11,813 bases of DNA from a virus (lineage: Duplodnaviria; Heunggongvirae; Uroviricota; Caudoviricetes). Positions within the stretch are counted from its first letter, which is position 1, and each line of letters opens with the position of its first letter. The stretch spans positions 1 through 11,813 of the IMG/VR virus record IMGVR_UViG_2869947659_000003, one strand, 5' to 3'. This document shows positions 1 through 11,813 of the stretch, one piece after another. A model generated the notes under the pieces. It was not told where the DNA came from. It saw only the letters and a program-made list of their open reading frames with translations, and made no database searches. The translations under genes were made by a program, and so were the position numbers.

Positions 1-819
1 TTAAGCAGCCATCTGATGATATTTTTCCCTGAAGGCTGCCGGGGAGATATTCCCCAGACGAGAGTGACGACGCTGACGATTGTAGAAAATCTCAATGTAT
101 TCCCGTATTACTGAGATGGCTTCATCCCGGTTATTAAAACGATAGTGGCTCAGGCTCTCATTTTTCAGCGTTCCCCAGAAGCTTTCCATCGGAGCGTTGT
201 CGTAACAGTGACCTTTACGCGACATTGATGTTTTCAGACCAGACTGCTCCTGTATGACCCGGTAATCGTATGCGCAGTACTGTGAACCTCGATCAGAGTG
301 GTGGATTAGCCCGGCAGGTGGGCGCTGGCTCCTGAGCGCCATAAACAGGGCTTTACCTGTCAGCTCTTTTGTCATGCGCTCTCCCATGGCGTAGCCGACA
401 ATTTCGCACGTATAAACATCTTTGATGCCAGCGAGGTACAACCATCCCTCCTGTGTGGCAACATACGTCAGGTCCGCCACCCAGACCTGATTTGGTGCTG
501 TAGGAGCGAACGTCTGGTTCAGCAGATTTGGCGCAACTGGCAGATTGTGGTTCGGGTTCGTAGTCGCTCTGAACTTGCGTTTCTGCTTACAGCGTAGCCT
601 TAGCTCCTTACGAAGACGTGCCAGTCGGTCACGACCAACGATGATGCCATTCTCTGCCAGCTCCGTCTGGAGCCGCCGGGTTCCATATGTTTCGCGAGTG
701 CGGATATGTGCCACCTTAATCTCCAGTTTTAGCCGCTCATCACTTTGTTTTCTGTCTGAGGGTTCATGCTGTACCCAGTTGTAATAACCGCTCCTGGATA
801 CACCAAATACCTGACACAT
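1..819 (-). CDS. IS3-family transposase OrfB (DDE/integrase catalytic core), probably made as an OrfAB fusion by -1 frameshift
   Basis: 272-aa ORF with rve-like motifs (HSDRGSQYCAYDY, KGHCYDNAPMESFWGTLK, FYNRQRRHSRLGNISP). Stop codon sits at window positions 1-3. The ATG at 819 is probably not the biological start. Confidence 0.9.
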   Translation of the reverse strand: MCQVFGVSRSGYYNWVQHEPSDRKQSDERLKLEIKVAHIRTRETYGTRRLQTELAENGIIVGRDRLARLRKELRLRCKQKRKFRATTNPNHNLPVAPNLLNQTFAPTAPNQVWVADLTYVATQEGWLYLAGIKDVYTCEIVGYAMGERMTKELTGKALFMALRSQRPPAGLIHHSDRGSQYCAYDYRVIQEQSGLKTSMSRKGHCYDNAPMESFWGTLKNESLSHYRFNNRDEAISVIREYIEIFYNRQRRHSRLGNISPAAFREKYHQMAA

Positions 820-854
820 CGCTTCAATGGGAAATTGTTGTCGCCATTGTTCGA

Positions 855-1157
855 TTAACGCGTATTTTTCAGCGACTCCTGTGCAAAATACGCTGTTGCT
901 TTTTTTAATATATCTCGCTCAAGGCGAGCTTCATTTAACGCCTTACGCAGTTGCAGAATTTCAGATTCCAGTTCAGCCACCGTGCGGGAACCAGGAGTAC
1001 CGAGCCCTTTTCTGGCGGCGGTAACCCATTGTCCTAAAGTGCCTTCAGGAAGGGATAATCGGGAAGCGCCTTCACTGATCGAAAGTTGATTTTCAAGAAC
1101 CGTTCTGACAGCTTCGGCTTTGAACTCTTTAGAGTAACGTTGGTTTTTTCTGCTCAT
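855..1157 (-). CDS. IS3-family transposase OrfA (helix-turn-helix DNA-binding subunit)
   Basis: 100-aa ORF directly upstream of OrfB; N-terminal HTH-like region and C-terminal leucine-zipper-like segment (LESEILQLRKALNEARLERDILKKATAYFA) typical of IS3 OrfA. Confidence 0.85.
   Translation of the reverse strand: MSRKNQRYSKEFKAEAVRTVLENQLSISEGASRLSLPEGTLGQWVTAARKGLGTPGSRTVAELESEILQLRKALNEARLERDILKKATAYFAQESLKNTR
897..908 (-). other. Putative programmed -1 ribosomal frameshift site (A-rich slippery run) near the 3' end of orfA
   Basis: Minus-strand mRNA reads GAT ATA TTA AAA AAA GCA at the codons for ILKKA; the IS3 family typically uses an A AAA AAG-type heptamer here. Not experimentally supported. 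Confidence 0.5.
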
Positions 1158-1256
1158 TATTAGCTCCTTCTGATGCCATTCTATTTCAGGAAGGAGTGTC
1201 CGTTAAACTCAGGCTACCTCAGTTCGCCGCTGGCGAATTTCGAAAATATCAACCAG

Positions 1257-1538
1257 TTACCGCCGTAACCGCTCCGGCTTCTTCCAGTGGTACGTAATTT
1301 TTGCTTTTTCCCTGTACGTCTGCACGCGGCGACGGTAGGCCAGCATTTCAAGAACGCGGATCCGTATGTCGCGCATATCAACATCATTAAGCTGGATACC
1401 ATCACGGCGCATCACCTCAGCAACAACACGCACATAATTTTCAGCGGTCACGCTGTCCGGCTGTGTGGCCTGTTCGTCATGCTGCTGGCTGATTCCGGTA
1501 ACGCGGCGGATTAATCCCAGTAGTTCGGCTTCTGTCAT
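1257..1538 (-). CDS. Hypothetical protein, 93 aa
   Basis: ORF with a G-rich Shine-Dalgarno (GGGGG, 4 nt before the ATG). No recognisable family. Stop codon lies 36 bp from the IS end, so the gene appears intact. Confidence 0.55.
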   Translation of the reverse strand: MTEAELLGLIRRVTGISQQHDEQATQPDSVTAENYVRVVAEVMRRDGIQLNDVDMRDIRIRVLEMLAYRRRVQTYREKAKITYHWKKPERLRR

Positions 1539-1564
1539 TGTGCCCCCATCGCTCTGATAGTCTG

Positions 1565-1640
1565 GTGTCGTCGGGTCCTTCCTGGAATTATGGCCCGTTA
1601 CGGGGCGGCGACCTCGCGGTTTTTCGCTATTTATGAGCTT
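1565..1640 (+). other. Lambda-type cos site, copy 1 (cosQ-like ACGGGTCC-type segment plus cosN; 12-nt cohesive-end sequence GGGCGGCGACCT at 1603..1614)
   Basis: Sequence CGGGTCCTTCCTGG...GTTACGGGGCGGCGACCTCGCGGTTTTTCGCTATTTATGAGC closely matches the lambda genome termini as I recall them (right end ...ACGGGTCCTTTCCGG...GTTACG, left end GGGCGGCGACCTCGCGGGTTTTCGCTATTTATGAAAA). Confidence 0.8.
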
Positions 1641-1649
1641 TTTTAGAGG

Positions 1650-1800
1650 GAGGTTGTTGTTTAATTGTTTGTCATATCCATTTGATAACTAAGTAAAAAT
1701 AAAGAGCAATACAACAACCTGATAGTGTTTTTTTGATGCTAAAAATAAAAAAATGCTAATTGAATCAAATAGTTTTAAAAAAATACGTGGTTGTTGTATT
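1650..1800. repeat. AT-rich region with three GTTGTTGT / ACAACAAC repeats on the cosB side of cos copy 1
   Basis: GGTTGTTGTTT at about 1652, ACAACAACC at about 1710 and GGTTGTTGTAT at about 1790, seen directly. Possible terminase-small-subunit or IHF-type binding elements. Confidence 0.35.
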
Positions 1801-1831
1801 GCGTATTTGATGGCGTAACAGAAAGTGATTT

Positions 1832-2272
1832 TTAACTTTGCTGTTCTGTAACGACTGATTGTTCCATGCTGGCACGGCAAACGCTTACGGCATGACGCCA
1901 CCCAGCCAGAAAGCCGGCCATTTTATTTCGCGCTTTGCTCACTTCTTCCGGTGAGTAGCCGTAAATCTGTAAACCTTCATCAAATCTATGTTCTGTTTCT
2001 TCACTGGAGTACTCGTCACGCTCAGATGAAAGCAGCCTGGCAACCATAATTTTTTCCAGCGCACTGGTTTCTACGTGATATCCAATGGCCTCAAGATGGC
2101 TTTTACCTGAAGACCAAAGCAATGTATGCCCGATGTGATAACCGCCGGACTTTCCGCGATCCGCATTAAGATACGGCATCCCTTGTTTGGTCCATGCGCG
2201 AATAGTGGTTCTGTTTACCTTGAAATGTTCAGCTATTTCCTGCTGACTTACAAAACAAGCCTTATTAATCAT
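1832..2272 (-). CDS. Nu1-like terminase small subunit homologue (N-terminal winged-helix cos-binding domain); candidate packaging-redirection protein
   Basis: N-terminus VSQQEIAEHFKVNRTTIRAWTKQGMPYLNADRGKSGG aligns with lambda Nu1 VNKKQLADIFGASIRTIQNWQEQGMPVLRGGGKG. Only 146 aa versus 181 aa for Nu1, with a divergent C-terminus. RBS GAGGT precedes the ATG; the gene sits about 90 bp downstream of cos copy 2, as in lambda. Confidence 0.8.
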   Translation of the reverse strand: MINKACFVSQQEIAEHFKVNRTTIRAWTKQGMPYLNADRGKSGGYHIGHTLLWSSGKSHLEAIGYHVETSALEKIMVARLLSSERDEYSSEETEHRFDEGLQIYGYSPEEVSKARNKMAGFLAGWRHAVSVCRASMEQSVVTEQQS

Positions 2273-2339
2273 AATGTTACCTCAATTGACTGATTAAATG
2301 TTAATCAAGTGGTGGTGGTGTCACCTTCACGGAAAAACG

Positions 2340-2400
2340 TCATAAATAGCGAAAACCCGCGAGGTCGCCGCCCCGTAACGGCTCCATATGCCGGAAAGGA
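2340..2400 (-). other. Lambda-type cos site, copy 2 (cosQ-cosN; cohesive-end sequence reverse-complemented at 2362..2373), correctly oriented for the Nu1-like gene
   Basis: Minus strand reads ACGGGTCCTTTCCGGCATATGGAGCCGTTACG GGGCGGCGACCT CGCGGGTTTTCGCTATTTATGACG, near-identical to lambda cosQ/cosN. Confidence 0.85.
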
Positions 2401-2405
2401 CCCGT

Positions 2406-2430
2406 AAAAAAAAGCCGGATTTCTCCGGCC
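2406..2430 (-). terminator. Rho-independent terminator downstream of the capsid-like operon
   Basis: Stem GCCGGA / TCCGGC with 4-nt loop, followed on the minus strand by eight U residues. Confidence 0.7.
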
Positions 2431-2435
2431 TTGTC

Positions 2436-2849
2436 TCAGATGGTTTTCAGTATGCGATCGATGTCGCCGTCATCGCCCTGGTTTCTGCCATCGTATGCCA
2501 TGCCAGCTGATACGGCTTGCGGGCTGTGCATGTCCATAAAGTTTTCAAAGGCTGCGGTAAGCTCTGGTGCAACCTTTGGGCGCTCCTGCTCTATGGTCAT
2601 GTTCAGGATTTCACGAGCATTATCGACGCTAATACATGGCACGTTTGCCATTGCACGTAACAGCGGCTGATAGTCTTTATGCTCATGAAGCGCCATAATC
2701 GCATCAGCGCGCGGCTTGTCCTGCTCTTCCAGTTTGTTTAGTTGATATACGGCCTCATAGGTTGATAAACCTCTGTCAGCCATTGCCCGCGCTTCGGCTT
2801 TAAATTTACTCGCCAGCGGTAGCGTCATGATGCTTTCATTCGTTGCCAT
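2436..2849 (-). CDS. Hypothetical protein, 137 aa (last gene of the capsid-like operon)
   Basis: ORF with AGGGGGA Shine-Dalgarno, 12 nt downstream of the gpD-like gene. No recognisable family. Confidence 0.6.
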   Translation of the reverse strand: MATNESIMTLPLASKFKAEARAMADRGLSTYEAVYQLNKLEEQDKPRADAIMALHEHKDYQPLLRAMANVPCISVDNAREILNMTIEQERPKVAPELTAAFENFMDMHSPQAVSAGMAYDGRNQGDDGDIDRILKTI

Positions 2850-2861
2850 CGTTCCCCCTGC

Positions 2862-3197
2862 TTATCGGGCCAGCGGCTGAACGGATACGCCGGAACCCGC
2901 AAAGGCGGCGCATTTTTTCGCATCGGTGTCGACGCTCTCAGGCCAGTTAACGGCGGCAATATTGAATATCCCCGTCTTGTAACACTGTGCTGATTTCTGC
3001 TTTGACGTGTCCACAGGGTACGAGGTCAGATAAACAGCCTTGCCAGATTCCTTACCATCCCACGGCTTAAACTCGCCATTGTCCGCCAGCATCAGCGGGG
3101 TAAATTCCTGAATAACGCCAGCATCAGCGGCAAAATGTACCAGCGTCGTGGCGACCTGCTGACTGCCTGCAAATAACTCAATGTATGGAGTGTCCAT
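2862..3197 (-). CDS. Lambda gpD-like head decoration protein homologue
   Basis: TPLMLADNGEFKPWDG...YKTGIFNIAAVNWPESVDTDAKKCAAFAGSGVSV aligns with lambda gpD TPLMLDTSSRKLVAWDG...[35 protein letters not shown] (from memory). GGGGGA Shine-Dalgarno. Confidence 0.75.
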   Translation of the reverse strand: MDTPYIELFAGSQQVATTLVHFAADAGVIQEFTPLMLADNGEFKPWDGKESGKAVYLTSYPVDTSKQKSAQCYKTGIFNIAAVNWPESVDTDAKKCAAFAGSGVSVQPLAR

Positions 3198-3208
3198 AGA
3201 ATCCCCCG

Positions 3209-4264
3209 TTAACCAATTTTGACGGTAACAAATTTGCGAATATCTGCCGGAACCGGCTGCGGTGCGCTGTGCGTCTGCACGTACTCAATCGCCGGATCGC
3301 CGTCCTCAATCCAGTTTTTCGGGTAAAACATGTTTTGCGTTGCGCCTGTTCTTACTGCGTCCTGATCCATAATCGCACCATAGGCCACCAGCCCTTTATT
3401 GTTGGTGTTGCCCAGAACCAGCAAATCAGGCTCAAGGAAATATTTTTCTGTGCCGTCGCTGTCAGTGTATTTGCCGGAATAGACGATAAGGGCAATATCG
3501 CCCAGATAGCCTTTAAAGCTCACCACTTCGCCCAGGTTTTTACAGGCCAGCTCTGCGGCGGACTCTGAACCACGGGAAAGATCGTACAGCTCACGGAATT
3601 TTTTAAAGCTGCGTAACGTTCGCCATACCTCAGCGCCCATAATCATGACGTTTGCGGGGCAACCAGCCTGATCGGCGTATAGTTCGATATCATAGATTGG
3701 ATCGTGGGTTTCTTTGTCCTGCTCTGACCATTTTTTCCCGTCGGCCTGCTCTATGATGTTTTTTTCCGGTATCTTCCAGTCGATTTCATAGCGCTCTATG
3801 CCTTCGCCCTCAATGATGTTTTTTCCGGTCGTTACCGCATTTACCGCCAGCCATTCCACGCGCGCTTTAATGGCGTTTATCTGGCGGCGCATGTTGCCAG
3901 TAATCAGGCGCATACGGCGATAGGTAGGGTCGTTAAGCTGTGCCGGATCTTCTCCAGCCATGCGCATGATGGTTTTCGTTGGATCGATTTCGTGCTTTGG
4001 CTTCATGTAGCCAGGTTTAATCGTGCTGGTTTCGTACCCTTTATCGCGCTGAACCTGGCTACCCACCATAGGCGAACAAAACGCCGACATGGTGACTTCT
4101 TCAATGTCCAGGGTATCCAGCATGATGTTTTGCGTGCTGAATGTCGCCACGTTCGGGAAAAACAGCGTGGTAAACAGCGGACTGAATTTAAATTCCGCAA
4201 TATCCCCGCGATTCAGGTACGCAAAAAGCTGGTTAGTGTTAAGTACCATTGCTTTTACTGTCAT
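3209..4264 (-). CDS. Lambda gpE-like major capsid protein homologue
   Basis: Conserved blocks along the whole 351 aa shared with lambda gpE: EFKFSPLF, KPGYMKPKHE, DPTYRRMRLI, WSEQDKETHDP, WRTLRSFK, RGSESAAE, SFKGYLGDIALIVYSGKY, LVLGNT, FYPKNWIEDGDPA, QSAP. Start codon overlaps the stop of the upstream 68-aa ORF (TAATG). Confidence 0.9.
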   Translation of the reverse strand: MTVKAMVLNTNQLFAYLNRGDIAEFKFSPLFTTLFFPNVATFSTQNIMLDTLDIEEVTMSAFCSPMVGSQVQRDKGYETSTIKPGYMKPKHEIDPTKTIMRMAGEDPAQLNDPTYRRMRLITGNMRRQINAIKARVEWLAVNAVTTGKNIIEGEGIERYEIDWKIPEKNIIEQADGKKWSEQDKETHDPIYDIELYADQAGCPANVMIMGAEVWRTLRSFKKFRELYDLSRGSESAAELACKNLGEVVSFKGYLGDIALIVYSGKYTDSDGTEKYFLEPDLLVLGNTNNKGLVAYGAIMDQDAVRTGATQNMFYPKNWIEDGDPAIEYVQTHSAPQPVPADIRKFVTVKIG

Positions 4265-4470
4265 TATTCCCCCCCGTGAACCTGATTCATACCCAGCGCC
4301 GCGCGTAAATAGGCGCGTACCTGCCAGCCTGTTGACGGCTCAACCATCGCCAGCGGATCAAGTCCTGCCGCAATGCCTGCTTTTACGTTCTGCTGGTGGC
4401 GTTCCTTGAGCGCCTTCACGATGTCGGGGCTTATGTACACCGAAACACCGCCTTTTTTCTCTTCAGCCAT
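4264..4470 (-). CDS. Hypothetical protein, 68 aa (first gene of the capsid-like operon)
   Basis: AGAGGA Shine-Dalgarno upstream; translationally coupled to the gpE-like gene. No recognisable family. Confidence 0.5.
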   Translation of the reverse strand: MAEEKKGGVSVYISPDIVKALKERHQQNVKAGIAAGLDPLAMVEPSTGWQVRAYLRAALGMNQVHGGE

Positions 4471-4498
4471 AGTAAGAAATTCCTCTTTGACTTAAAAA

Positions 4499-4555
4499 AT
4501 CATAACTGGATGTTCATCCAGTTATGATTATAATCATGATCGCATTTTGTGCAAT
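4499..4555 (-). promoter_or_regulatory. Sigma70-like promoter for the capsid-like operon overlapped by a 30-bp perfect palindrome (candidate operator)
   Basis: Minus strand -35 TTGCAC (4549..4554), 16-bp spacer, -10 TATAAT (4527..4532). Palindrome ATCATAACTGGATG tt CATCCAGTTATGAT at 4499..4528 covers the predicted transcription start. Confidence 0.5.
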
Positions 4556-4633
4556 GATATTGAGTTGCGTTGCAAATTATGAAATGATTATCCCGATCAT
4601 GTGTGTCAGTGCACCAAAAAACCTCATATGCAA

Positions 4634-4672
4634 AAGCCCGATAACCCACCTCTGACCTTATCGGGCTTTTTT
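4634..4672 (+). terminator. Hairpin terminator (10-bp stem AGCCCGATAA / TTATCGGGCT, 13-nt loop, T-run)
   Basis: Seen directly; followed by TTTTTTAT on the plus strand. A weaker U-run follows on the minus strand, so it may act in both directions. Confidence 0.5.
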
Positions 4673-4770
4673 ATCTGCCTGCAAAGATGTTGAACAAAAA
4701 TTAACCACAACCATCATCTTTTTTGCATCAAAACAATTAAAAACAATAAATTACGCTCATGATGATGATG

Positions 4771-4847
4771 ACGATAAAATCACAAAAATGCGCTTTTTTC
4801 CGCGCCTCCCGCCCCGTGTTCAGGCCCACCCCGCCAGGAGGACCCGT
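4771..4847 (-). other. Degenerate third cos-like element (diverged duplicate of cos copy 2)
   Basis: Plus-strand 4771..4869 aligns with 2341..2430 over about 100 bp (…CCGCCCCGT…GGACCCGTAAAAAAGCCGGATTGCTCCGGC). The cohesive-end core is not intact (GGGCGGGAGG instead of GGGCGGCGACCT). Confidence 0.55.
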
Positions 4848-4869
4848 AAAAAAGCCGGATTGCTCCGGC
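4848..4869 (-). terminator. Rho-independent terminator downstream of ssb
   Basis: Stem GCCGGA / TCCGGC with loop, followed on the minus strand by six U residues; near-identical to the terminator at 2406..2430. Confidence 0.7.
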
Positions 4870-4885
4870 TTCTGTCACTCGTCGC

Positions 4886-5308
4886 TTAAAACGGTATGTT
4901 ATCCCCGTACGGATCATCATTCCCCGCCTGTTGTTTTGCCCTGTTCAGCGCGTCAGTAGCCTGGCCCTGTTGACCTTTTTTGCCGCCCAGTCGCGCCGTT
5001 CGCGCACTGATTACACTGTCTGCGATAACCTGCCAGCCCTGCCGCGTTTCCCCGTTCTGTCCGGTCCACTGGCTGACCTGCATCGTGCCGGATACGCTGG
5101 CAACGTCGCCTTTTTGATGTTTAGCCAGGAAGTCGGCCTGCTTACCAAATGCGATGACCGATAGCCATAACGTCGCCTGCCCATCCTGCGCCTGACTACA
5201 TGGCAACGATACCGCCATACGCGCCAGCGTCATCGGTGTGCCCTTGCTGGTCTGTTTTACCTGCGGGTCGTCCACCAGCCGCCCGTAAGCGGCTATCTGT
5301 GCTGTCAT
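4886..5308 (-). CDS. ssb: Single-stranded DNA-binding protein (SSB-like OB-fold protein with acidic C-terminal tail)
   Basis: OB-fold-like core (TLWLSVIAFGKQADFLAKHQKGDVASVSGTMQVSQWTGQNGETRQGWQVIADSV) resembling the E. coli SSB core, and a C-terminal tail ending DDPYGDNIPF (compare the SSB DDDIPF tip). Start overlaps the stop of the upstream ORF (ATGA). Confidence 0.7.
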   Translation of the reverse strand: MTAQIAAYGRLVDDPQVKQTSKGTPMTLARMAVSLPCSQAQDGQATLWLSVIAFGKQADFLAKHQKGDVASVSGTMQVSQWTGQNGETRQGWQVIADSVISARTARLGGKKGQQGQATDALNRAKQQAGNDDPYGDNIPF

Positions 5309-5562
5309 AATTCCACCTCTCCGGTTTTAACGTTGATGGTTGTTACCTGTTCCGCTTCGGCAATCTCCCGCTCTGTCAGCGTGGCAAAGTTTGCCGCTGC
5401 TGTGGTCATGAATGCGCTTATCAGGTCGGGATGTGCTTTCGCGTATCCTTCCCCCGTGTTGCGGTCGATGATTTTTATCGCCACTCTCAGCCAGTGCTCT
5501 GTAAGGTCAATGGCGCGGTTATGCTGCTTCTTCTGATTATTAAGTTTTCCTGATGTGCGCAT
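5305..5562 (-). CDS. Hypothetical protein, 85 aa, translationally coupled to ssb
   Basis: ORF with ATGA overlap to ssb. No recognisable family. Confidence 0.5.
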   Translation of the reverse strand: MRTSGKLNNQKKQHNRAIDLTEHWLRVAIKIIDRNTGEGYAKAHPDLISAFMTTAAANFATLTEREIAEAEQVTTINVKTGEVEL

Positions 5563-5610
5563 TTTTATTTTTACCCCCTCGTTTAAAAAGTTTTGAGTTG
5601 TGCCTCCCCT

Positions 5611-5837
5611 TGTCTACCTTATCTACCTTACTGGCTCTCATGCCAGTAATGGCGCGGCTTTCAGCGGGGTAGAGTGCTTTTATCCACTATCTACCCCGTA
5701 TCTACCTCCCTGTCTGATTCAGGTAAAATCAGGTAGAGAGGGTAGATAGTAGGTAGACAGTGAAAAAAGGCTGTCTACCTAAGTTAATATACTGAATTAA
5801 ATGTATTTTTCTTTACTCAGGTAGACAGGGTAGACAG
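5611..5837. repeat. Iteron array (candidate replication origin) with a DnaA-box-like site
   Basis: At least 11 copies of TCTACC / GGTAGA-containing 8-9-mers in both orientations (for example TGTCTACC 5611, TATCTACC 5620 and 5688, GGTAGAGAG 5732, GGTAGATAG 5741, GGTAGACAG 5752, 5820 and 5829, CTGTCTACC 5771). TTATCCACT at 5680..5688 is an 8/9 match to the DnaA box. Lies immediately 3' of the primase gene. Confidence 0.7.
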
Positions 5838-5850
5838 CCATTGCAAAAAA

Positions 5851-7599
5851 TTATAAAAACGCGTCGCAATCGTCTGTTGTTATTGCGTTAGTCTGCGTTA
5901 CTCCCTTAACTTTCCGCGTAATATATTCATGTCCGTAAACTTTCGCGGCTGGCTTCATAGCCTTGCCAAAGTCATTTACGTTTAGCGGTTTGCTCCTGCC
6001 TGCGTATGCCATAAACGCCAGATAGACGCGGTAAAGGCTGTTTCTGGTCGTGTACTTCACTGAATCGCCACCGCCACCCATCATCAGGCCGCGCGCTTCC
6101 TCCAGAAAATTCAGGAACTGGCAAAACTCAATAACCGGATCCGTCTGTTGCTTTATTGCCAGAGCTTCATCACCGTCACGCTGTTCCAGTAGTAAAGCCC
6201 GTGCCTTCTCAGGGTCGGTAAAGTTCGCCAGCAAGCGGCGGATAATGACAGGGATTTCAGCCGCGATCTTTTCCGGTAGCTCCCTGTCTTTTTCTGCCTC
6301 GCTTACGATATTGTCGAAGCGGAAAATAACCCGACGACGTGACACGCCTCCGGCCCGTTCGGTGAATATCATCGGGTTGTTATTGGTCGCCAGCACCACC
6401 GCCCTGATTACCGTAGTGAAACGCTTTTCATATTTCGGGTTGATTTCCACGGGGTCGCCGCCCGTGATTTTCTTGATGCCCGTGCCTTCGCCTGTATATT
6501 TCGGCTGGTCTGCCAGGACGATAAGACGACTCCCGACAACCTGCGCACGCCCACCAGCATCATCAAGCGATGTCATTTCCGCGCTTACCGTGTTTTGTTT
6601 CCCCGCTAAAAGGCTGGCGATGTGGGTGAATGTACTTTTGCCGCTCCCGCCGTCTCCGGTGGCCTCAATAAACATCTGCCAGTCGTACCGGTTCGCCATA
6701 ATCATGTACAGCGCGGCACATATACGCATCATCTTGCGCTGGTCTTTTCCAGCTGCGTGATCAAGCCATTTATGAAAGTTTGGCGCGTTATCGCGGATGT
6801 TCTCCCCAGGTGCTGGTGGCGTGTACTCAATGCCGTTGTGCGTGGTGATCCAGTTCTCCGGCGTGTGCGGGGAAAATTCCCCCGTTTTCAGGTCAAGCGC
6901 ACCATTGGCGAACGGCAGCAAATCGCCGGACGGCTCCCCCATTGGTTCGGCAATAACTTTTAACGCTTCAACGGCGTTATTGATCACGCGTTTGCTGAAA
7001 GTGGCCCTGTGCTCTGAATAGATCGCCACCATTTCGCGGCTCAGCTCCATTGTGCTGATCGGACACCATACCCCGCCGCGCCATACGTGAACGATTTCAC
7101 TTTCCGGATGCACACAAACGCCATCAAAGCGCTCGGCAAGCAGCTGCGCGCGCTCACTGTCTGCCATTTGTGCCAGTTGCGTATTTTTCTGCTCCGGCAT
7201 GGTAAGCCCTGCGGCAATATTTTCACGCTCAGCATTCAGATAGCGCCGCCAGTTTTCACACTTCTGGACGTGCATTCCTTCGGGGTAAAAATTTGCGTCC
7301 TGAATATCTGCCGCCGCCAGCTTCTGACCAATCTTTTTGGTCTCCACTAAATCCAGTTCTCCGGCCTGGTACAGCCTTACGCGCTTTTTCCCATCCGGAA
7401 CAATTTTCAGCGCATCAAGTTCGGCAAGCTGATTTGGCCCAAGCCACACAGGCGGCACATTATCGCCGGATGCGGGGCCATCCTGCTCCTGCCATTGTTT
7501 CGCGTGCGACCAGGCATCACTACCCGCGAAAATAATTACCTCTGTGTCTTTGTGTTTTATTCCGCGTGGCTGTTTTTTTACGTTCGGTGCCAGTTTCAT
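5851..7599 (-). CDS. P4-family primase/helicase (alpha-like replication protein; D5-type SF3 helicase with Walker A)
   Basis: 582-aa ORF with Walker A EATGDGGSGKST and a downstream Walker B-like LIVLAD segment; overall resemblance to the P4 alpha / phage-plasmid primase C-terminal region. Coupled by ATGA overlap to the upstream small ORF. Confidence 0.88.
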   Translation of the reverse strand: MKLAPNVKKQPRGIKHKDTEVIIFAGSDAWSHAKQWQEQDGPASGDNVPPVWLGPNQLAELDALKIVPDGKKRVRLYQAGELDLVETKKIGQKLAAADIQDANFYPEGMHVQKCENWRRYLNAERENIAAGLTMPEQKNTQLAQMADSERAQLLAERFDGVCVHPESEIVHVWRGGVWCPISTMELSREMVAIYSEHRATFSKRVINNAVEALKVIAEPMGEPSGDLLPFANGALDLKTGEFSPHTPENWITTHNGIEYTPPAPGENIRDNAPNFHKWLDHAAGKDQRKMMRICAALYMIMANRYDWQMFIEATGDGGSGKSTFTHIASLLAGKQNTVSAEMTSLDDAGGRAQVVGSRLIVLADQPKYTGEGTGIKKITGGDPVEINPKYEKRFTTVIRAVVLATNNNPMIFTERAGGVSRRRVIFRFDNIVSEAEKDRELPEKIAAEIPVIIRRLLANFTDPEKARALLLEQRDGDEALAIKQQTDPVIEFCQFLNFLEEARGLMMGGGGDSVKYTTRNSLYRVYLAFMAYAGRSKPLNVNDFGKAMKPAAKVYGHEYITRKVKGVTQTNAITTDDCDAFL

Positions 7600-7895
7600 T
7601 TTTTACCCCTGAATACGTTAAGCATCTTTTTTATTTCCTGAATATTGGCGCGTGCTTTCTCCCTGCTGGTTGGTTTACTGCGGGGCGCTGCCTGTACCAG
7701 AGAAAAATCACGCCGAAACTGATAAACAGGCATCACGCAATCATATTCGTAGCCTTCACGACGGTAGGTGATGCGCCGTTCTGCCACGCCTTTAATCGTT
7801 ACCATGCCGCCATATTTATCGCGGTAAATATCGCCGTTCATAAATTCAGGACGAGCGGGGCCGCTGGCAGTAACGCCAGAATTTTTATTTTTCAT
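7596..7895 (-). CDS. Hypothetical protein, 99 aa, translationally coupled to the primase
   Basis: ORF; stop overlaps the primase ATG. No recognisable family. Confidence 0.6.
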   Translation of the reverse strand: MKNKNSGVTASGPARPEFMNGDIYRDKYGGMVTIKGVAERRITYRREGYEYDCVMPVYQFRRDFSLVQAAPRSKPTSREKARANIQEIKKMLNVFRGKK

Positions 7896-7900
7896 GTTTT

Positions 7901-8131
7901 TTATTCTCCGGTGTGCTGCGCTTTATTATTCTCGTGAATTGCCATCACTGTATTTAATTCATTAATAACAGGCGTTAATAGCGTACGCACGGCAGAAAAC
8001 ATCATTGAATCAGATTCATCGCCACTTTCCGGCACATCAATTAACTTAAGTAGTAATGCGTCCATTTCCTTTGCGCGGATTAATGCGTTTTCAGAGTGGA
8101 TTAATACTTCAAAAGGGATTTTATGCATCAC
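7901..8131 (-). CDS. Hypothetical protein, 76 aa
   Basis: ORF in the same operon orientation. No recognisable family. Confidence 0.5.
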   Translation of the reverse strand: MMHKIPFEVLIHSENALIRAKEMDALLLKLIDVPESGDESDSMMFSAVRTLLTPVINELNTVMAIHENNKAQHTGE

Positions 8132-8405
8132 AAATTTTCTCCCTTATTCTTTTAATGTCCTCATTAAGGATGTCTGTAACTTTTATCAGCGAGTTTTTGG
8201 CAATTATTTTTATTGTTTTAAGTTTTCTTTTGTCGTGCTCCGACTGTGATTTTCTCTCCATAATCTCCACCATGTGGGTAACATCAACGAGCGCACGTAT
8301 CAGTATTTGCATTGCTTCTTCTGCTGCGTCCGGTGTGGTTTTATTGCACATGTACCCCTCCGCATTTTTTTTCGTTAGAAATAAGCGTTCTTCTTTCCTG
8401 TTCAT
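8121..8405 (-). CDS. Hypothetical protein, up to 94 aa (start uncertain; internal ATGs at 8351 and 8309)
   Basis: ORF overlaps the upstream ORF (8341..8571) by 65 nt in a different frame, so the true start may be an internal Met. Confidence 0.4.
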   Translation of the reverse strand: MNRKEERLFLTKKNAEGYMCNKTTPDAAEEAMQILIRALVDVTHMVEIMERKSQSEHDKRKLKTIKIIAKNSLIKVTDILNEDIKRIREKICDA

Positions 8406-8571
8406 CGCTCAGGAATACGCAGACCTCACCGCTAAGGCGTTTAAGTAAGCCGATGATTGCCCCTGATTCGCTGTCGGTCATCATGCCAGGGTAATCCTCT
8501 GCCAGTGCGCAAATAACTTCGATTTGGTGGGCGCGTTCTGCTGCCTGTTGTAGTGTGATTTCCTGACTCAT
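8341..8571 (-). CDS. Hypothetical protein, 76 aa
   Basis: ORF whose ATG overlaps the stop of the upstream 66-aa ORF (ATGA at 8568..8571). Confidence 0.5.
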   Translation of the reverse strand: MSQEITLQQAAERAHQIEVICALAEDYPGMMTDSESGAIIGLLKRLSGEVCVFLSDEQERRTLISNEKKCGGVHVQ

Positions 8572-8768
8572 AAGCCTACCCCCTGACGAATACGGGCGGC
8601 GAATACCATCACGCAGCCATCAGGAGATTGCTGGCGTGCTTCCTGTTCGCTGGTGGCCACGATGTGAATCACGCGCGGTTGTGCGGTGCTCAGGGCGATA
8701 AAACGCCAGATGTATTTATTCAGGTTGTACGAGTCCCGCCCTTGCGGGTGTATGGTATAATTTCTCAT
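8568..8768 (-). CDS. Hypothetical small protein, 66 aa (possibly Icd-like); first gene of the replication operon
   Basis: Sub-ORF MRNYTIHPQGRDSYNLNKYIWRFIALSTAQPRVIHIVATSEQEARQQSPDGCVMVFAARIRQGVGL, taken from the C-terminal end of the 469-aa track ORF, with a GAGG RBS. Its WRF...PRV..I.A.SE.EAR...FAAR pattern resembles what I recall of Icd-like proteins in P4-like prophages; tentative. Confidence 0.45.
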   Translation of the reverse strand: MRNYTIHPQGRDSYNLNKYIWRFIALSTAQPRVIHIVATSEQEARQQSPDGCVMVFAARIRQGVGL

Positions 8769-8859
8769 AGCTGCCTCGATAATCTTGCTATCGTTGGTGG
8801 TTAGAAGCCCCGTTACTGCTCCTACAGTGCGGGGTTTCGTCGTTTCTGCACCTTGCATT

Positions 8860-8945
8860 AACAAGGTGTAAGTAACTTTATTTATAGGTGGCTTACATGT
8901 CAATGCTTTTATGTAAGACTTTTTATGTGTATATTGTCTTACACT
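8860..8945. promoter_or_regulatory. Divergent promoter/operator region with four TGTAAG / CTTACA half-sites
   Basis: TGTAAG at 8867 and 8912, CTTACA at 8892 and 8938; CTTACAT-N12-ATGTAAG forms an inverted repeat. Sits between the plus-strand RHH-like gene and the minus-strand replication operon. Confidence 0.45.
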
Positions 8946-8964
8946 TTCATTGAGAGGATTACAG

Positions 8965-9270
8965 ATGGCTACAGGTTCAAAAAACGCAAAATCACAATCA
9001 CTGACAGCTCGGATCCCGCATGATGTTATTGAAGGCATGGAATCCGTAAAACTGGACGGTGAAAGCAACGCCGGATTCATAGTAACCGCCATGCGCGGTG
9101 AAATCGCCCGCCGCCAGGCAGAAGGAAGCAGAGAAAACCCCCTGATTTCTTCGCTCGATGCACTGGCGCAGGTGGAAAAACTCGGAATCAAAGCCGCCGA
9201 GGAGATCGGGCAGCTCGTCACTGTCGCACGTGAAGAACTCCAGCGCCGCAAGACCAAAGAACCAGAGTAA
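8965..9270 (+). CDS. Probable ribbon-helix-helix (CopG/Arc-like) DNA-binding protein, about 101 aa
   Basis: Strong RBS AGAGGA 6 nt before the ATG at 8965 (the track ORF begins at TTG 8950). N-terminus LTARIPHDVIEGMESVKLDGESNAGFIVTAMRGEIARR fits a beta-strand/helix/helix RHH pattern. Fold assignment is by pattern, not by search. Confidence 0.55.
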   Translation: MATGSKNAKSQSLTARIPHDVIEGMESVKLDGESNAGFIVTAMRGEIARRQAEGSRENPLISSLDALAQVEKLGIKAAEEIGQLVTVAREELQRRKTKEPE

Positions 9271-9327
9271 TCACCATCAGCGCCGTGGTGTAAGGTATTA
9301 CGGCGCATTGCTATGCAGGACAACACA

Positions 9328-9501
9328 ATGACCGATAAAGAATTGACCAAAACATTATCACCGGCACGGAAAAGACGGCGCAGAAAGATAGAGCATGAAT
9401 CAGAAAGATTCGCGCCATGTGCTTTTGCCCTTGAGCAATTCCTTAAAGAGTACAGGGAAAAGCGCTCATTGCAGGTATGGCAACGAACTGAACCAGACTG
9501 A
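9328..9501 (+). CDS. Small basic protein, about 57 aa (the track ORF begins at the upstream ATG 9313)
   Basis: AGGA 7 nt upstream of ATG 9328; N-terminal KRRRRK cluster; followed by a plus-strand terminator. Confidence 0.45.
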   Translation: MTDKELTKTLSPARKRRRRKIEHESERFAPCAFALEQFLKEYREKRSLQVWQRTEPD

Positions 9502-9577
9502 TTGCATTGCCCACCAGCCGCAAATGTGGCATTGTTGGCAATGCTCATGCGTTGGGGATAACGTGTAGCTTGTGTCG

Positions 9578-9609
9578 AGGGGCCACCGTAGCGGGTGGCC
9601 TTTGTTTTG
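9578..9609 (+). terminator. Rho-independent terminator ending the plus-strand cassette
   Basis: Stem GGCCACC / GGTGGCC with loop GTAGCG, followed by TTTGTTTTG. Confidence 0.6.
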
Positions 9610-9612
9610 CCC

Positions 9613-9977
9613 GTTATTCGGCAATTGTGGCGCTTCTCCACATGGTTGATATAATCCCACTGCTCAGATTCATTTTTTGCGCAGTAGGTTAATTGTTCAC
9701 AAAGGCGCTCCGGCAACGGGGCGCTTTTTGTTTTTATTAGTTTGTAGAAACCTGACTCAGAGATAATGCTCATATTCTGATTGCCGTCAGGGGTGTAAGT
9801 TAAATTTACTCCCTTTTTATCATCAAACATCTGCAACACTCTGGCGTTAACAATATTGGTTTCACTCCCGCCAGTAAGGCCGGAAATAACCGGAATACTT
9901 TCGGCAAAATTTTGCAGATTCTGTTTTTCAGGACGAACGAAGCCCCGCCCTTGTTCGGGAGAATATCCAGTATTCAT
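9613..9977 (-). pseudogene. Possible 5' remnant of a gene downstream of alpA (N-terminal ~120 codons of the 469-aa track ORF); extent uncertain
   Basis: The N-terminal part (MNTGYSPEQGRGFVRPEKQ...EQWDYINHVEKRHNC) has protein-like composition. The rest of the 469-aa frame runs antisense through the plus-strand genes and is Ser/Cys/Arg-rich, so it is probably not a real protein. No in-frame stop exists until 8568. Confidence 0.3.
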
Positions 9978-10029
9978 GGTTAGATCTCTGTATTAGTGGA
10001 TGGGTGGCGGCTGTGTGCCGCCAGCCTGA

Positions 10030-10218
10030 TTAGTGAACTGCCTCGCAGCTGTCCTTCCATGCCAGAACTTCGGATAAAGACCAGCCAACGGAACGACCGC
10101 CCAGCTTACGCCGTGATGGGAATTGTCCGGCTTTTTCCAGGCGGTACCGACATGAGCGGCTCAGGCCTGTAAGTTGCTGACATTCTTTTTCACGTATAAA
10201 GCGATCTGTGCTTAACAC
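10030..10218 (-). CDS. alpA: AlpA/Vis-like winged-helix regulator (prophage excisionase / transcriptional activator family)
   Basis: 62-aa protein resembling CP4-57 AlpA and P4 Vis-type proteins in size, composition and position next to a P4-type integrase. Start is GTG at 10218 with AAGGGGGA upstream. Confidence 0.8.
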   Translation of the reverse strand: MLSTDRFIREKECQQLTGLSRSCRYRLEKAGQFPSRRKLGGRSVGWSLSEVLAWKDSCEAVH

Positions 10219-10254
10219 AATTCCCCCTTTGTTGTTTCTTAAAGAGTCATTGGG

Positions 10255-10300
10255 TGGATTATTGGGTTGGGTTGTGTCGGATTGTGTCAGGGTGTTTGTG
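10255..10300. repeat. Tandem roughly 10-bp direct repeats (GGTTGTGTC GGATTGTGTC AGGGTGTTTG) upstream of alpA
   Basis: Seen directly, in the alpA 5' region. Confidence 0.4.
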
Positions 10301-10498
10301 GAATGGCAAACACTGGCGGCGGTCGTTTTACAGAAGCATGGGGAATGAGAATAAAAACTCTTTTAATTCATTATGATGCAAAGGCATAAAATTTTACTTT
10401 TACGCCTTTTTTACATATTTTTAAGAGTGATTCGCCAGTGTATAAAAAAACAGTACACCTATAAAAATCAAATGGTTATTACGATGGCTGATTTTTAA

Positions 10499-10560
10499 CC
10501 CGTTGTTCCATTTTGTTCCTTGTTGTTCGTCGTTGTGTCTCGTTGTTTCACGTTGTCCGC
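10499..10560. repeat. Six tandem roughly 10-bp direct repeats (consensus tCGTTGTTyC) just 3' of the integrase gene
   Basis: CCGTTGTTCC, ATTTTGTTCC, TTGTTGTTCG, TCGTTGTGTC, TCGTTGTTTC, ACGTTGTCCG in helical phase. Candidate binding array for Int arm-binding domain, AlpA/Vis or IHF-type proteins. Confidence 0.4.
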
Positions 10561-10583
10561 ATCCTGAAAAATCGCAAAAAAAA

Positions 10584-11813
10584 TTATATTTCTCTGGCTA
10601 TTGGCAATGTGGTTACGTTTTCATGTGTTCCCGCCAGTATCCCTAACCGCTCCGTCCACATATCCAGCGCGTCACGTTTCGCATCCAGATAACGGGAATG
10701 GTTATAGACTCGTTGCATCCCTGGCATCTGATGACCTGTAAGCTGCTCCACGACGTGAGGATCCACGCCTAAATCGTTCAGCATCGTTGTAAAGGTGCGC
10801 CGGATGTCATGCAGTGACCAGTGAGGGTGTTTTAGCCTCCTGTGCGCTAATCTACCGTACTGCGACACGCTTGTTTCCTGTTTCACTTCCCCCAGCAATA
10901 AGCCCGTGTGCCTGTTCTGCTCCACCAGCTGCGTGACGAACGGTAGTATTGCTTCCGGTATGGGCCGGAATATTGCCACCTTCGTTTTGCTGTGTTCTTT
11001 CGGCACGGTCCAGAGCATTTCGGTAAAATCCCACTCGCTGATCTCCGATAACCTCAGTTCTACCGTCCGGCATCCGAAAACAATCAGGAGGCGGATTAGT
11101 GCGACGTAGTAAGGGGAAAATATTTTTTTGTCCAGTGCCTGCAATAATTCGCCAAGTTCTTTGGTGCTTAAGACACGCTCGCTTATATCCGGTTTTTTCC
11201 TAACGTCCGCCACACTCATATCATCAAGAACGTTGCTGATTGCATAGCGCCGCCTCCGGCAGAACTTAAGCGCCTGTTTGCACGTCTGTAGCAAGAATCC
11301 GGCAGTAACAGGCGTTCGCTTTGCCACCTGGTCAAAACAGGCCAGCCAGTGCCGTAGCTCGCATTTATCCAGCGGCATAGCACCAATGTGCTGTATTACG
11401 TGATTATTAAGGCGCTTTTTCAGGGCGGCATAATCCACGCGGTTTTCCTTTGCGTACGACTCAAGCCAGTAGGTGAGCGCATCGCCAACCGTTACCGGCT
11501 TTAACGCTTCCTGTACGGTGTAATTAAGCTCATGACGTGGATTTTTCCCCTCTGCCAGCCATGCGCGACACTGGGCGGCTTTTTCCCTGGCTGATTTCAG
11601 GCTCAGATCAGGATAATTTCCCAGCTTAATGCGTTCCGGTGGTGCCCCCCTTCCCGTTCCGGCCCTGTAAGTGAAATACCAGGTTAAAAGGCCACTGGTT
11701 GAATGCCTGACGCTCAGGTTTCCACCGTCATTAAGAAAGGCTGTTTTTTGGGCGGGTGTGCCGTTGATTTTCCTCAGCTGTGTATCGCTCAGTTTGTTAA
11801 GTGCTCTGCTCAT
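10584..11813 (-). CDS. int: P4-type tyrosine integrase (site-specific recombinase)
   Basis: 409-aa ORF with N-terminal arm-binding-like region and C-terminal catalytic motifs (HDIRRT, GHQ, RVYNHSRYL with the catalytic Tyr). The ATG is at the window edge; alignment with the P4 Int N-terminus suggests this is close to the true start. Confidence 0.93.
   Translation of the reverse strand: MSRALNKLSDTQLRKINGTPAQKTAFLNDGGNLSVRHSTSGLLTWYFTYRAGTGRGAPPERIKLGNYPDLSLKSAREKAAQCRAWLAEGKNPRHELNYTVQEALKPVTVGDALTYWLESYAKENRVDYAALKKRLNNHVIQHIGAMPLDKCELRHWLACFDQVAKRTPVTAGFLLQTCKQALKFCRRRRYAISNVLDDMSVADVRKKPDISERVLSTKELGELLQALDKKIFSPYYVALIRLLIVFGCRTVELRLSEISEWDFTEMLWTVPKEHSKTKVAIFRPIPEAILPFVTQLVEQNRHTGLLLGEVKQETSVSQYGRLAHRRLKHPHWSLHDIRRTFTTMLNDLGVDPHVVEQLTGHQMPGMQRVYNHSRYLDAKRDALDMWTERLGILAGTHENVTTLPIAREI

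Follow-up and report, generated by a model that had tools for sequence, protein, structure and literature searches.

An 11,813-nt stretch of viral DNA (positions 1–11,813 of IMG/VR record IMGVR_UViG_2869947659_000003, hereafter the window) carries, on its minus strand at positions 2436–4470, four closely spaced genes that almost certainly represent the conserved capsid cassette c1498–c1501 of a Gram-negative phage-inducible chromosomal island (PICI) of the EcCICFT073 type. The element is not new, since its prototype, EcCICFT073, has already been published. In order of transcription, the cassette comprises ORF68 (4264–4470, 68 aa, orthologue of c1498, taken from the open reading frame list and our reading of the strand), a gpE-type major capsid protein (3209–4264, 351 aa, orthologue of c1499), a gpD-type head decoration protein (2862–3197, 111 aa, orthologue of c1500) and ORF137 (2436–2849, 137 aa, orthologue of c1501), which its profile and BLASTP matches mark as a putative stand-alone, truncated scaffolding protein of the Nu3 type. 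To the published picture of the element our analysis adds this scaffold identity of c1501, a fixed architecture with a conserved promoter, purifying selection on the genes and a caveat that concerns the position of the markers used in earlier experiments.

We identified the region as c1498–c1501 on the basis of its 96.7% nucleotide identity to the counterpart in E. coli CFT073, the CFT073 accessions (AAN79967 for c1498, AAN79968 for c1499), the published lengths of c1498 and c1501 (68 and 137 aa, supplement of PMC6092414) and the set of PICI genes in the window. At the protein level, 346 of the 351 coat residues are identical to CFT073, as are all 111 of the decoration protein, 67 of the 68 of ORF68 and 128 of the 137 of ORF137. 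At least 80% of the region was present in 594 of the 5,426 complete E. coli genomes. Besides the capsid operon, the window encodes a tyrosine integrase (Phage_integrase plus Arm domain), AlpA (Phage_AlpA, E=3e-18), a DUF4222 protein, a D5-type primase (D5_N/DUF5906) and the single-stranded DNA-binding protein SSB, followed by a cos site and the redirecting phage packaging protein Rpp; integrase, AlpA and primase all lie on the minus strand. Genes for lysis, tail, portal or large terminase were found neither among the open reading frames of the window nor in the RefSeq annotation of a related locus of ~11.8 kb between phoQ and roxA (L001). That is, the gene set bears out an earlier reading of the bare sequence (the preliminary description), according to which the capsid operon sits in a satellite rather than in a phage.

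The same description had assigned neither of the two flanking proteins to a family and had placed them where scaffold-type partners would be expected. For ORF137 the lack of a family did not hold, but a relation to scaffolds did: its sequence is homologous to the C-terminal ~85 residues of the lambdoid gpC/Nu3 scaffold. It matched phrog_1999 (E=4e-65), the same family that lambda Nu3 itself matches (E=2.7e-26), and the extreme C-terminus of phrog_53, the head maturation protease (E=1.7e-10). Aligned with hhalign, a profile built solely from ORF137 orthologues matched a lambdoid Nu3 equivalent over its last 75 residues, at a probability of 96% (E=2.5e-9). BLASTP detected the 501-aa S49 peptidase (gpC) of a CFT073 prophage (E=3e-11, 39% identity over its residues 416–493, that is, within its last 85); direct BLASTP of ORF137 against lambda gpC gave no significant match. 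The preliminary description had left room for both flanking proteins being ordinary lambdoid head genes in a phage context. Searching 50,697 phage records with tblastn returned a single match for ORF137, located at the end of a phage gpC gene that immediately precedes D and E, and none for ORF68.

In the alignment, ORF137 shows two of the helical repeat units of Nu3 (IMxxxE...LAxxPxxxVxxAxxIL) and a conserved tail made of FExFMxxHSPxAV, an acidic stretch and a short terminal helix. The number of such units is one in lambda Nu3, which has a similar tail, and three in CFT073-type Nu3. No Peptidase_S49 match was found in the 137 aa of ORF137, whose gene stands alone and has a Shine-Dalgarno sequence of its own. 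It occupies the last position, downstream of D, and not the position upstream of D and E that the lambdoid scaffold takes. An AlphaFold2 model was all-helical, with residues 41–80 confidently predicted and a disordered tail; the structural search suggested in the preliminary description returned no specific neighbour for this model. NCBI names the protein 'head-tail connector protein', a label that probably descends from 'head-tail preconnector', the old name of gpC. Identity with lambda FI was considered as well and ruled out by lack of similarity. Three orthologues of 93 aa (P0025, P0029 and P0031) carry a natural in-frame deletion of residues 21–64 between two RAMA motifs, so that the number of repeats varies among satellite scaffolds (one or two) and, likewise, among phage scaffolds (one in lambda, three in the CFT073 prophage). 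From these sequence relations we predict that ORF137 acts as a scaffold on a gpE-type coat.

The family calls for the two middle genes proved correct. The coat protein matched Phage_cap_E (PF03864, E=2e-52, 178.7 bits against a cut-off of 22.9) over profile positions 14–328 of 329 and is 43% identical to lambda gpE, and the decoration protein matched HDPD (PF02924, E=2.5e-17, 63.5 bits against a cut-off of 29.1) and is 36% identical to lambda gpD. The coat is 67% identical to that of a Salmonella satellite, 45% to that of the lambdoid prophage resident in CFT073 and at most 47% to anything in the 50,697 phage records. Since no phage record comes closer, the coat forms an old satellite-specific branch of the gpE family and not a recent capture.

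Gene order separates satellites from phages. In each phage inspected (lambda, phage 204576, a myovirus fragment, an Aeromonas phage and the CFT073 prophage), the order was scaffold/protease, D, E. Each satellite locus inspected (five from E. coli, two from Salmonella and two from Pluralibacter) instead had the 68-aa gene, E, D and a small gene, followed by cos and either Rpp or a TerS-like gene. The E-before-D order noted in the preliminary description is thus recurrent and the reverse of lambda, where C/Nu3 precedes D and E. The satellite loci differ in their integrases and in their replication genes (D5-type primase, RepA helicase or DUF927 primase), and since the order stays constant across them, the reversed order is a fixed trait of a mobile cassette and no local accident. 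The cassette is, in other words, shared among mosaic satellites. In two E. coli loci (L009 and L010, both at 1854–2396) it is followed by a 180-aa 'terminase small subunit' gene in place of the 146-aa Rpp gene, together with a RepA-helicase replication module.

In the satellites of Salmonella and Pluralibacter, the fourth gene encodes fewer residues (68 and 77 aa, respectively). We had expected a Nu3-like protein there as well, but neither protein has significant similarity to ORF137, and the Salmonella protein belongs to phrog_657, a family of unknown function. In Pluralibacter a frameshift divides the coat gene, which is probably a pseudogene: in locus L005 (7785–8838) it is read as 179 plus 170 aa, and in L004 (9207–10270) no gene is called. 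The Pluralibacter satellite also carries a tail assembly gene resembling lambda gpI (L004, 11494–12078). A Salmonella locus (L006) has a truncated terminase large-subunit gene (GpA_ATPase, 157–2541) beside its integrase and a Nu1-like gene (9829–10164) at its far end, and has the appearance of a helper-embedded PICI inserted into a prophage's gene A, a type described in PMC10111431.

Our reading of the strand also agreed with the tight coupling of the four genes that had been pointed out before. The stop of ORF68 and the start of the coat gene share TAATG at 4264, the spacer between coat and decoration genes is 11 nt (3198–3208) and that between the decoration gene and ORF137 is 12 nt (2850–2861). 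A purine-rich or G-rich Shine-Dalgarno sequence precedes each of the four starts (AAGAGGA, GGGGGGGA, CGGGGGA and AGGGGGA). An intrinsic terminator (2411–2432, minus strand), with a stem of nine pairs, 5 of them G-C, followed by T8, closes the cassette. At the other end, a terminator-like hairpin with T runs (4625–4677, minus strand; a 20-nt inverted repeat, 85% complementary) ends the upstream replication/SSB unit and parts it from the cassette; counterparts of it were found in L001, L004 and L006.

Between this hairpin and ORF68 we read a near-consensus, sigma-70-like predicted promoter, TTGCAC-16 nt-TATAAT (4527–4554, minus strand). Its TATAAT and most of its -35 hexamer are invariant across 8 satellite loci from three genera; a consensus promoter scan of the window did not list it. 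Over the -10 hexamer and the likely start site lies a perfect palindrome with 15-nt arms, AATCATAACTGGATG-AA-CATCCAGTTATGATT (4498–4529, minus strand), which is a candidate operator or else a weak terminator. Its half-site TAACTGGATG occurs 4 times against 0.6 expected, and its core, CTGGAT/ATCCAG, is retained in the Salmonella satellite. A further inverted repeat, TGCAAC-N13-TTGCA (4550–4574, minus strand), has a single match in the window, spans the -35 hexamer and falls within the conserved part of the E. coli/Salmonella/Pluralibacter alignment; it may be a site for an activator or another regulator. The upstream region as a whole is conserved from the E. coli to the Salmonella and Pluralibacter satellites, whose proteins share only 54–67% identity. 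With its own conserved promoter region upstream and an intrinsic terminator downstream, the cassette can be read as an autonomous and probably regulated operon. A search of the window against Rfam matched no RNA family. The interval between SSB and the cassette (4471–4886) contains no PerC-family gene, and L008 is similar in this respect; such a gene is present in CFT073, L001, L009 and L010. A 49-aa Cys/His-rich open reading frame in this interval (4500–4649) has no Pfam match.

Pairwise dN/dS, calculated by the Nei-Gojobori method, was 0.05–0.18 for the coat protein, 0.06–0.20 for the decoration protein, 0.09–0.41 for ORF68 and 0.25–0.38 for ORF137. Between E. coli and Salmonella satellites the coat value was ~0.12, at a dS of about 2 or more. 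Because these ratios lie well below 1, all four genes are under purifying selection and maintained as proteins, and together with the conserved promoter region and the terminator this argues that the cassette is more than a chance assembly.

For ORF68, the earlier statement that it belongs to no recognised family stands. It matched phrog_3255, a family of unknown function (E=8e-37), and an exhaustive search of 1.84 billion representative proteins yielded 14 relatives, all of one small family. No match was obtained in Pfam, NCBIfam or the PDB sequences, and its family profile, compared by hhalign with all lambda head proteins and with other satellite proteins, hit nothing. Its AlphaFold2 model (mean predicted local distance difference test score, pLDDT, 74) shows a beta-hairpin and two helices, and here too the proposed structural search retrieved no fold match. 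Lambda gpW is also 68 aa long; ORF68 has no similarity to it, which rules out this identity. In the loci studied, the gene always lies directly upstream of the satellite coat gene. In E. coli it forms two deep allelic classes (L008 and L010 versus the window, L001 and L009) that are 69% identical to each other with a dS of ~0.5–0.6, while the adjoining coat genes are 95–97% identical and the promoter regions are identical. The classes have been exchanged independently of the neighbouring coat genes, with recombination breakpoints that hug the small gene.

Most likely, ORF68 either partners the coat protein in assembly or is a small protein regulating the cassette, which is the weakest point of our account. 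We also considered, as an unlikely variant that would be compatible with each of the readings of the cassette discussed below, that ORF68 is not a structural partner at all but a small dimeric, ribbon-helix-helix-like DNA-binding regulator acting on the promoter palindrome. The predicted layout of strand, long helix and helix recalls this fold, the N-terminal strand GGVSVYISPDIV is nearly invariant, the palindrome core is conserved too, and one homologue gave one faint match to RHH_1 (E=0.2). Against it, the palindrome does not co-vary with the two allelic classes, and the tight translational coupling to the coat gene better suits a partner needed in stoichiometric amounts. No significant profile or fold match placed ORF68 in the ribbon-helix-helix family.

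Lambda shells are built from E and Nu3 and are stabilised by D. Coat, cementing and scaffold-derived proteins are thus the minimal set for building and stabilising a lambda-type shell. We therefore favour, tentatively and with somewhat less than even confidence, a satellite-encoded scaffold, coat and cement set that builds shells, or joins in building them, on the helper portal. After helper induction, the satellite would produce its own scaffold, coat and cement proteins. Since the cassette lacks portal, protease, terminase and head-completion genes, the shells would nucleate on the helper portal and use the helper protease. The helper terminase would then fill them, with Rpp, encoded just downstream, redirecting this enzyme to the adjacent satellite cos. 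The satellite coat would supplement or replace that of the helper, giving mixed or pure satellite shells, and the cassette would be dispensable with helpers such as lambda, phi80 and the CFT073 prophage, which supply enough compatible coat. ORF137 and the coat are similarly diverged from the proteins of the co-resident helper (39% and 45% identity), which fits a private scaffold-coat pair.

Several published results weigh against this proposal. In PMC6092414, c1499 was named a capsid homologue and c1500 a decoration homologue, deletion of either left island transfer and interference with lambda unchanged, and an island carrying c1499::cat showed good transfer with lambda, with phi80 and with the resident helper. 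The authors report no phenotype for c1499, found the island DNA packaged by lambda to be phage-sized and describe the particles as built of phage proteins. Above all, it is this dispensability of c1499 and c1500 that speaks against any essential role, and in the literature on EcCICFT073 we found no data on particle composition. Our own results add to these points. The coat is only 43–47% identical to helper gpE, which bears on how well it would fit the helper portal, protease, FI, W and FII. For ORF68 we could detect no homologue whose function is known, and any role given to it is a guess. The frameshifted coat gene of Pluralibacter indicates that the cassette can decay. More generally, coat genes occur in 21 of the 29 reference Gram-negative PICIs, and transfer does not require them (PMC10111431). 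However, the two marked islands of PMC6092414 carry the designations c1501::tetA and c1499::cat, the first of which names the scaffold-like gene of 137 aa. With the markers inside the cassette, the published null results and the phage-sized DNA lose weight; if the marker notation has its usual meaning, it appears that an island with all four genes intact has never been examined for particle size or composition. For the same reason, a 'half capsid-forming' state of EcCICFT073-type satellites, in which their own coat, decoration protein and mini-scaffold are mounted on a stolen helper portal, possibly at another size, would have been missed; we consider this stronger version doubtful.

Alternatively, the cassette could redirect capsid size with its natural helper: ORF137 would compete with helper Nu3, and the resulting small capsids would exclude the helper genome. 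By analogy with Ccm of SaPIbov5, the satellite coat may in addition take special positions in the lattice. ORF137 keeps only the C-terminal repeats and tail of Nu3, the same logic as in CpmB versus the 80alpha scaffold (PMC5644958). Ccm is itself a homologue of the coat (PMC8569155), and PmCI172 has such a homologue too and makes small capsids. The islands behind the 'phage-sized DNA' of the prototype either carried their marker in c1501 or lacked c1499. On the other hand, only phage-sized DNA was seen with lambda, and by our own arithmetic about four copies of the ~11.7-kb island fill a lambda-sized T=7 head, whereas one or two copies are a poor fit for a T=4 lambda-type head (~21 kb). ORF137 and the coat, at 39% identity to the co-resident Nu3 tail and 45% to the co-resident coat, also look more like a private pair than a mimic of the helper scaffold. 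We consider size redirection unlikely on this balance. Interference, by which the satellite coat, the scaffold or ORF68 would poison procapsid assembly of the helper or repress its late genes and so lower its yield, is a general trait of satellites, and the two old ORF68 classes that recombine independently of the coat show a pattern known from proteins that target variable partners. But when each EcCICFT073 gene after ori was cloned singly in pBAD18, only c1503 (rppA) inhibited lambda (PMC6739421), and deletion of c1499 or c1500 did not restore lambda plaques (PMC6092414). For lambda, then, the results contradict the helper-interference role that the preliminary description had entertained; these experiments took genes singly and used lambda only, which limits what the negatives say, and we regard interference as quite improbable. 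It is hardly credible, finally, that the genes are functionless relics of a phage ancestor or of a capture event. No phenotype was found in the laboratory and the coat gene is frameshifted in one lineage, but all four genes keep dN/dS well below 1 across divergences in which dS exceeds 2, the cassette with its order and promoter is conserved over three genera and several mosaic backbones, and 594 complete E. coli genomes carry it intact.

Downstream of the cassette, the packaging functions are those of a PICI: two inverted cos segments and Rpp stand in place of an own terminase. A lambda-type cos segment (2333–2404, minus strand), recognised by its sequence and as one arm of an inverted repeat, directly follows the cassette and lies upstream of rpp; a second, cos-like segment (1572–1643, plus strand) is inverted relative to it, with 72-nt arms that are 85% complementary. 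Each contains GGGCGGCGACCT, and together they flank the rpp gene (1832–2272, minus strand), which lies outside the cassette. The encoded protein matches RppC (PDB 6HLK, E=7e-32) and is identical to CFT073 RppA at 135 of 144 residues. The two segments correspond to cos1 and cos2 of EcCICFT073 (PMC6739421, PMC6092414), whose two cos sites are described in PMC6739421; the prototype is induced and transferred at high frequency by helper phage (PMC6092414). About 3,600 further E. coli genomes matched the region in a ~80-nt cos segment alone (window 2322–2410), and these matches are probably cos sites of lambdoid or cryptic prophages.

The window's left end (1–1157) carries an IS3-family insertion sequence with an HTH_Tnp_1 orfA (855–1157) and an rve orfB (1–819). 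It sits ~100 nt past a 93-aa gene at the end of the satellite, where L001 and CFT073 continue to phoQ. A 469-aa open reading frame on the minus strand (8568–9977) has an odd, low-complexity composition and overlaps several plus-strand frames; in the equivalent region, the L001 annotation places several small genes (Icd-like, YlcI/YnfO family) on the two strands, and the 469-aa frame is probably not a real gene.

The element is thus of the same type as EcCICFT073 (PMC6092414, PMC6739421), with phoQ as a neighbour in related loci. Compared with the prototype, the window copy has the IS3-family insertion near its left end and is without the PerC-family gene found upstream of the CFT073 cassette. 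The two EcCICFT073 papers give no function to c1498 and c1501, and among the papers searched we found none that does so or that names c1501 a scaffold homologue. Compared with the lambda head genes, the coat (43% identity), the decoration protein (36%) and, at profile level, the scaffold C-terminus are homologous, and the genes are likewise co-oriented and close to cos. However, the satellite order is E, D, scaffold instead of scaffold, D, E; the satellite scaffold is a separate gene without an S49 protease and is not nested in a protease gene; and an extra 68-aa gene stands in front, while portal, terminase, W, FI and FII are missing from the cassette.

Other satellites offer partial parallels. 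CpmB of SaPI1 is likewise a small, helical satellite protein with a relation to the C-terminal end of a scaffold, in this case that of phage 80alpha (PMC5644958). No sequence relation between CpmB and ORF137 appeared in the Pfam and PHROG results, the ORF137 cassette adds a coat and a decoration protein of its own, and no small capsids have been reported for it. As here, Ccm of SaPIbov5 (PMC8569155) and the PmCI172 protein are satellite homologues of the major capsid protein of the helper. Both are linked to small capsids, unlike EcCICFT073 with lambda, and the coat described here is accompanied by a cognate-looking scaffold and a decoration protein. In P4, Sid and Psu act on a helper-type capsid in size determination and decoration, respectively. 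Sid is an external scaffold on the helper coat, and P4 has no coat gene; we detected no relation in sequence or fold between the cassette proteins and Sid or Psu. Capsid-forming PICIs (cf-PICIs) such as EcCIEDL933 share the int-alpA-rep backbone family and have their own capsid proteins (10.1101/2022.09.08.507074). They also encode portal, protease, head-tail connectors, HNH, TerS and TerL (10.1101/2022.09.08.507074), whereas the cassette described here uses Rpp and the helper terminase: an own portal, protease, connectors and terminase are absent from both the window and L001.

The coat genes of the reference Gram-negative PICIs have so far had no known role. The E. coli cassette now presents itself as a coherent set of scaffold, coat and cement genes that directly adjoins cos and rpp. 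If a role in the shell proves false, a well-conserved cassette would be left without a function. Should EcCICFT073-type satellites be half capsid-forming, they would be intermediates between classical PICIs and cf-PICIs. And if the satellite proteins do contribute to the shell, they would define a new grade of satellite autonomy, which would also be relevant to engineered, PICI-based delivery particles.

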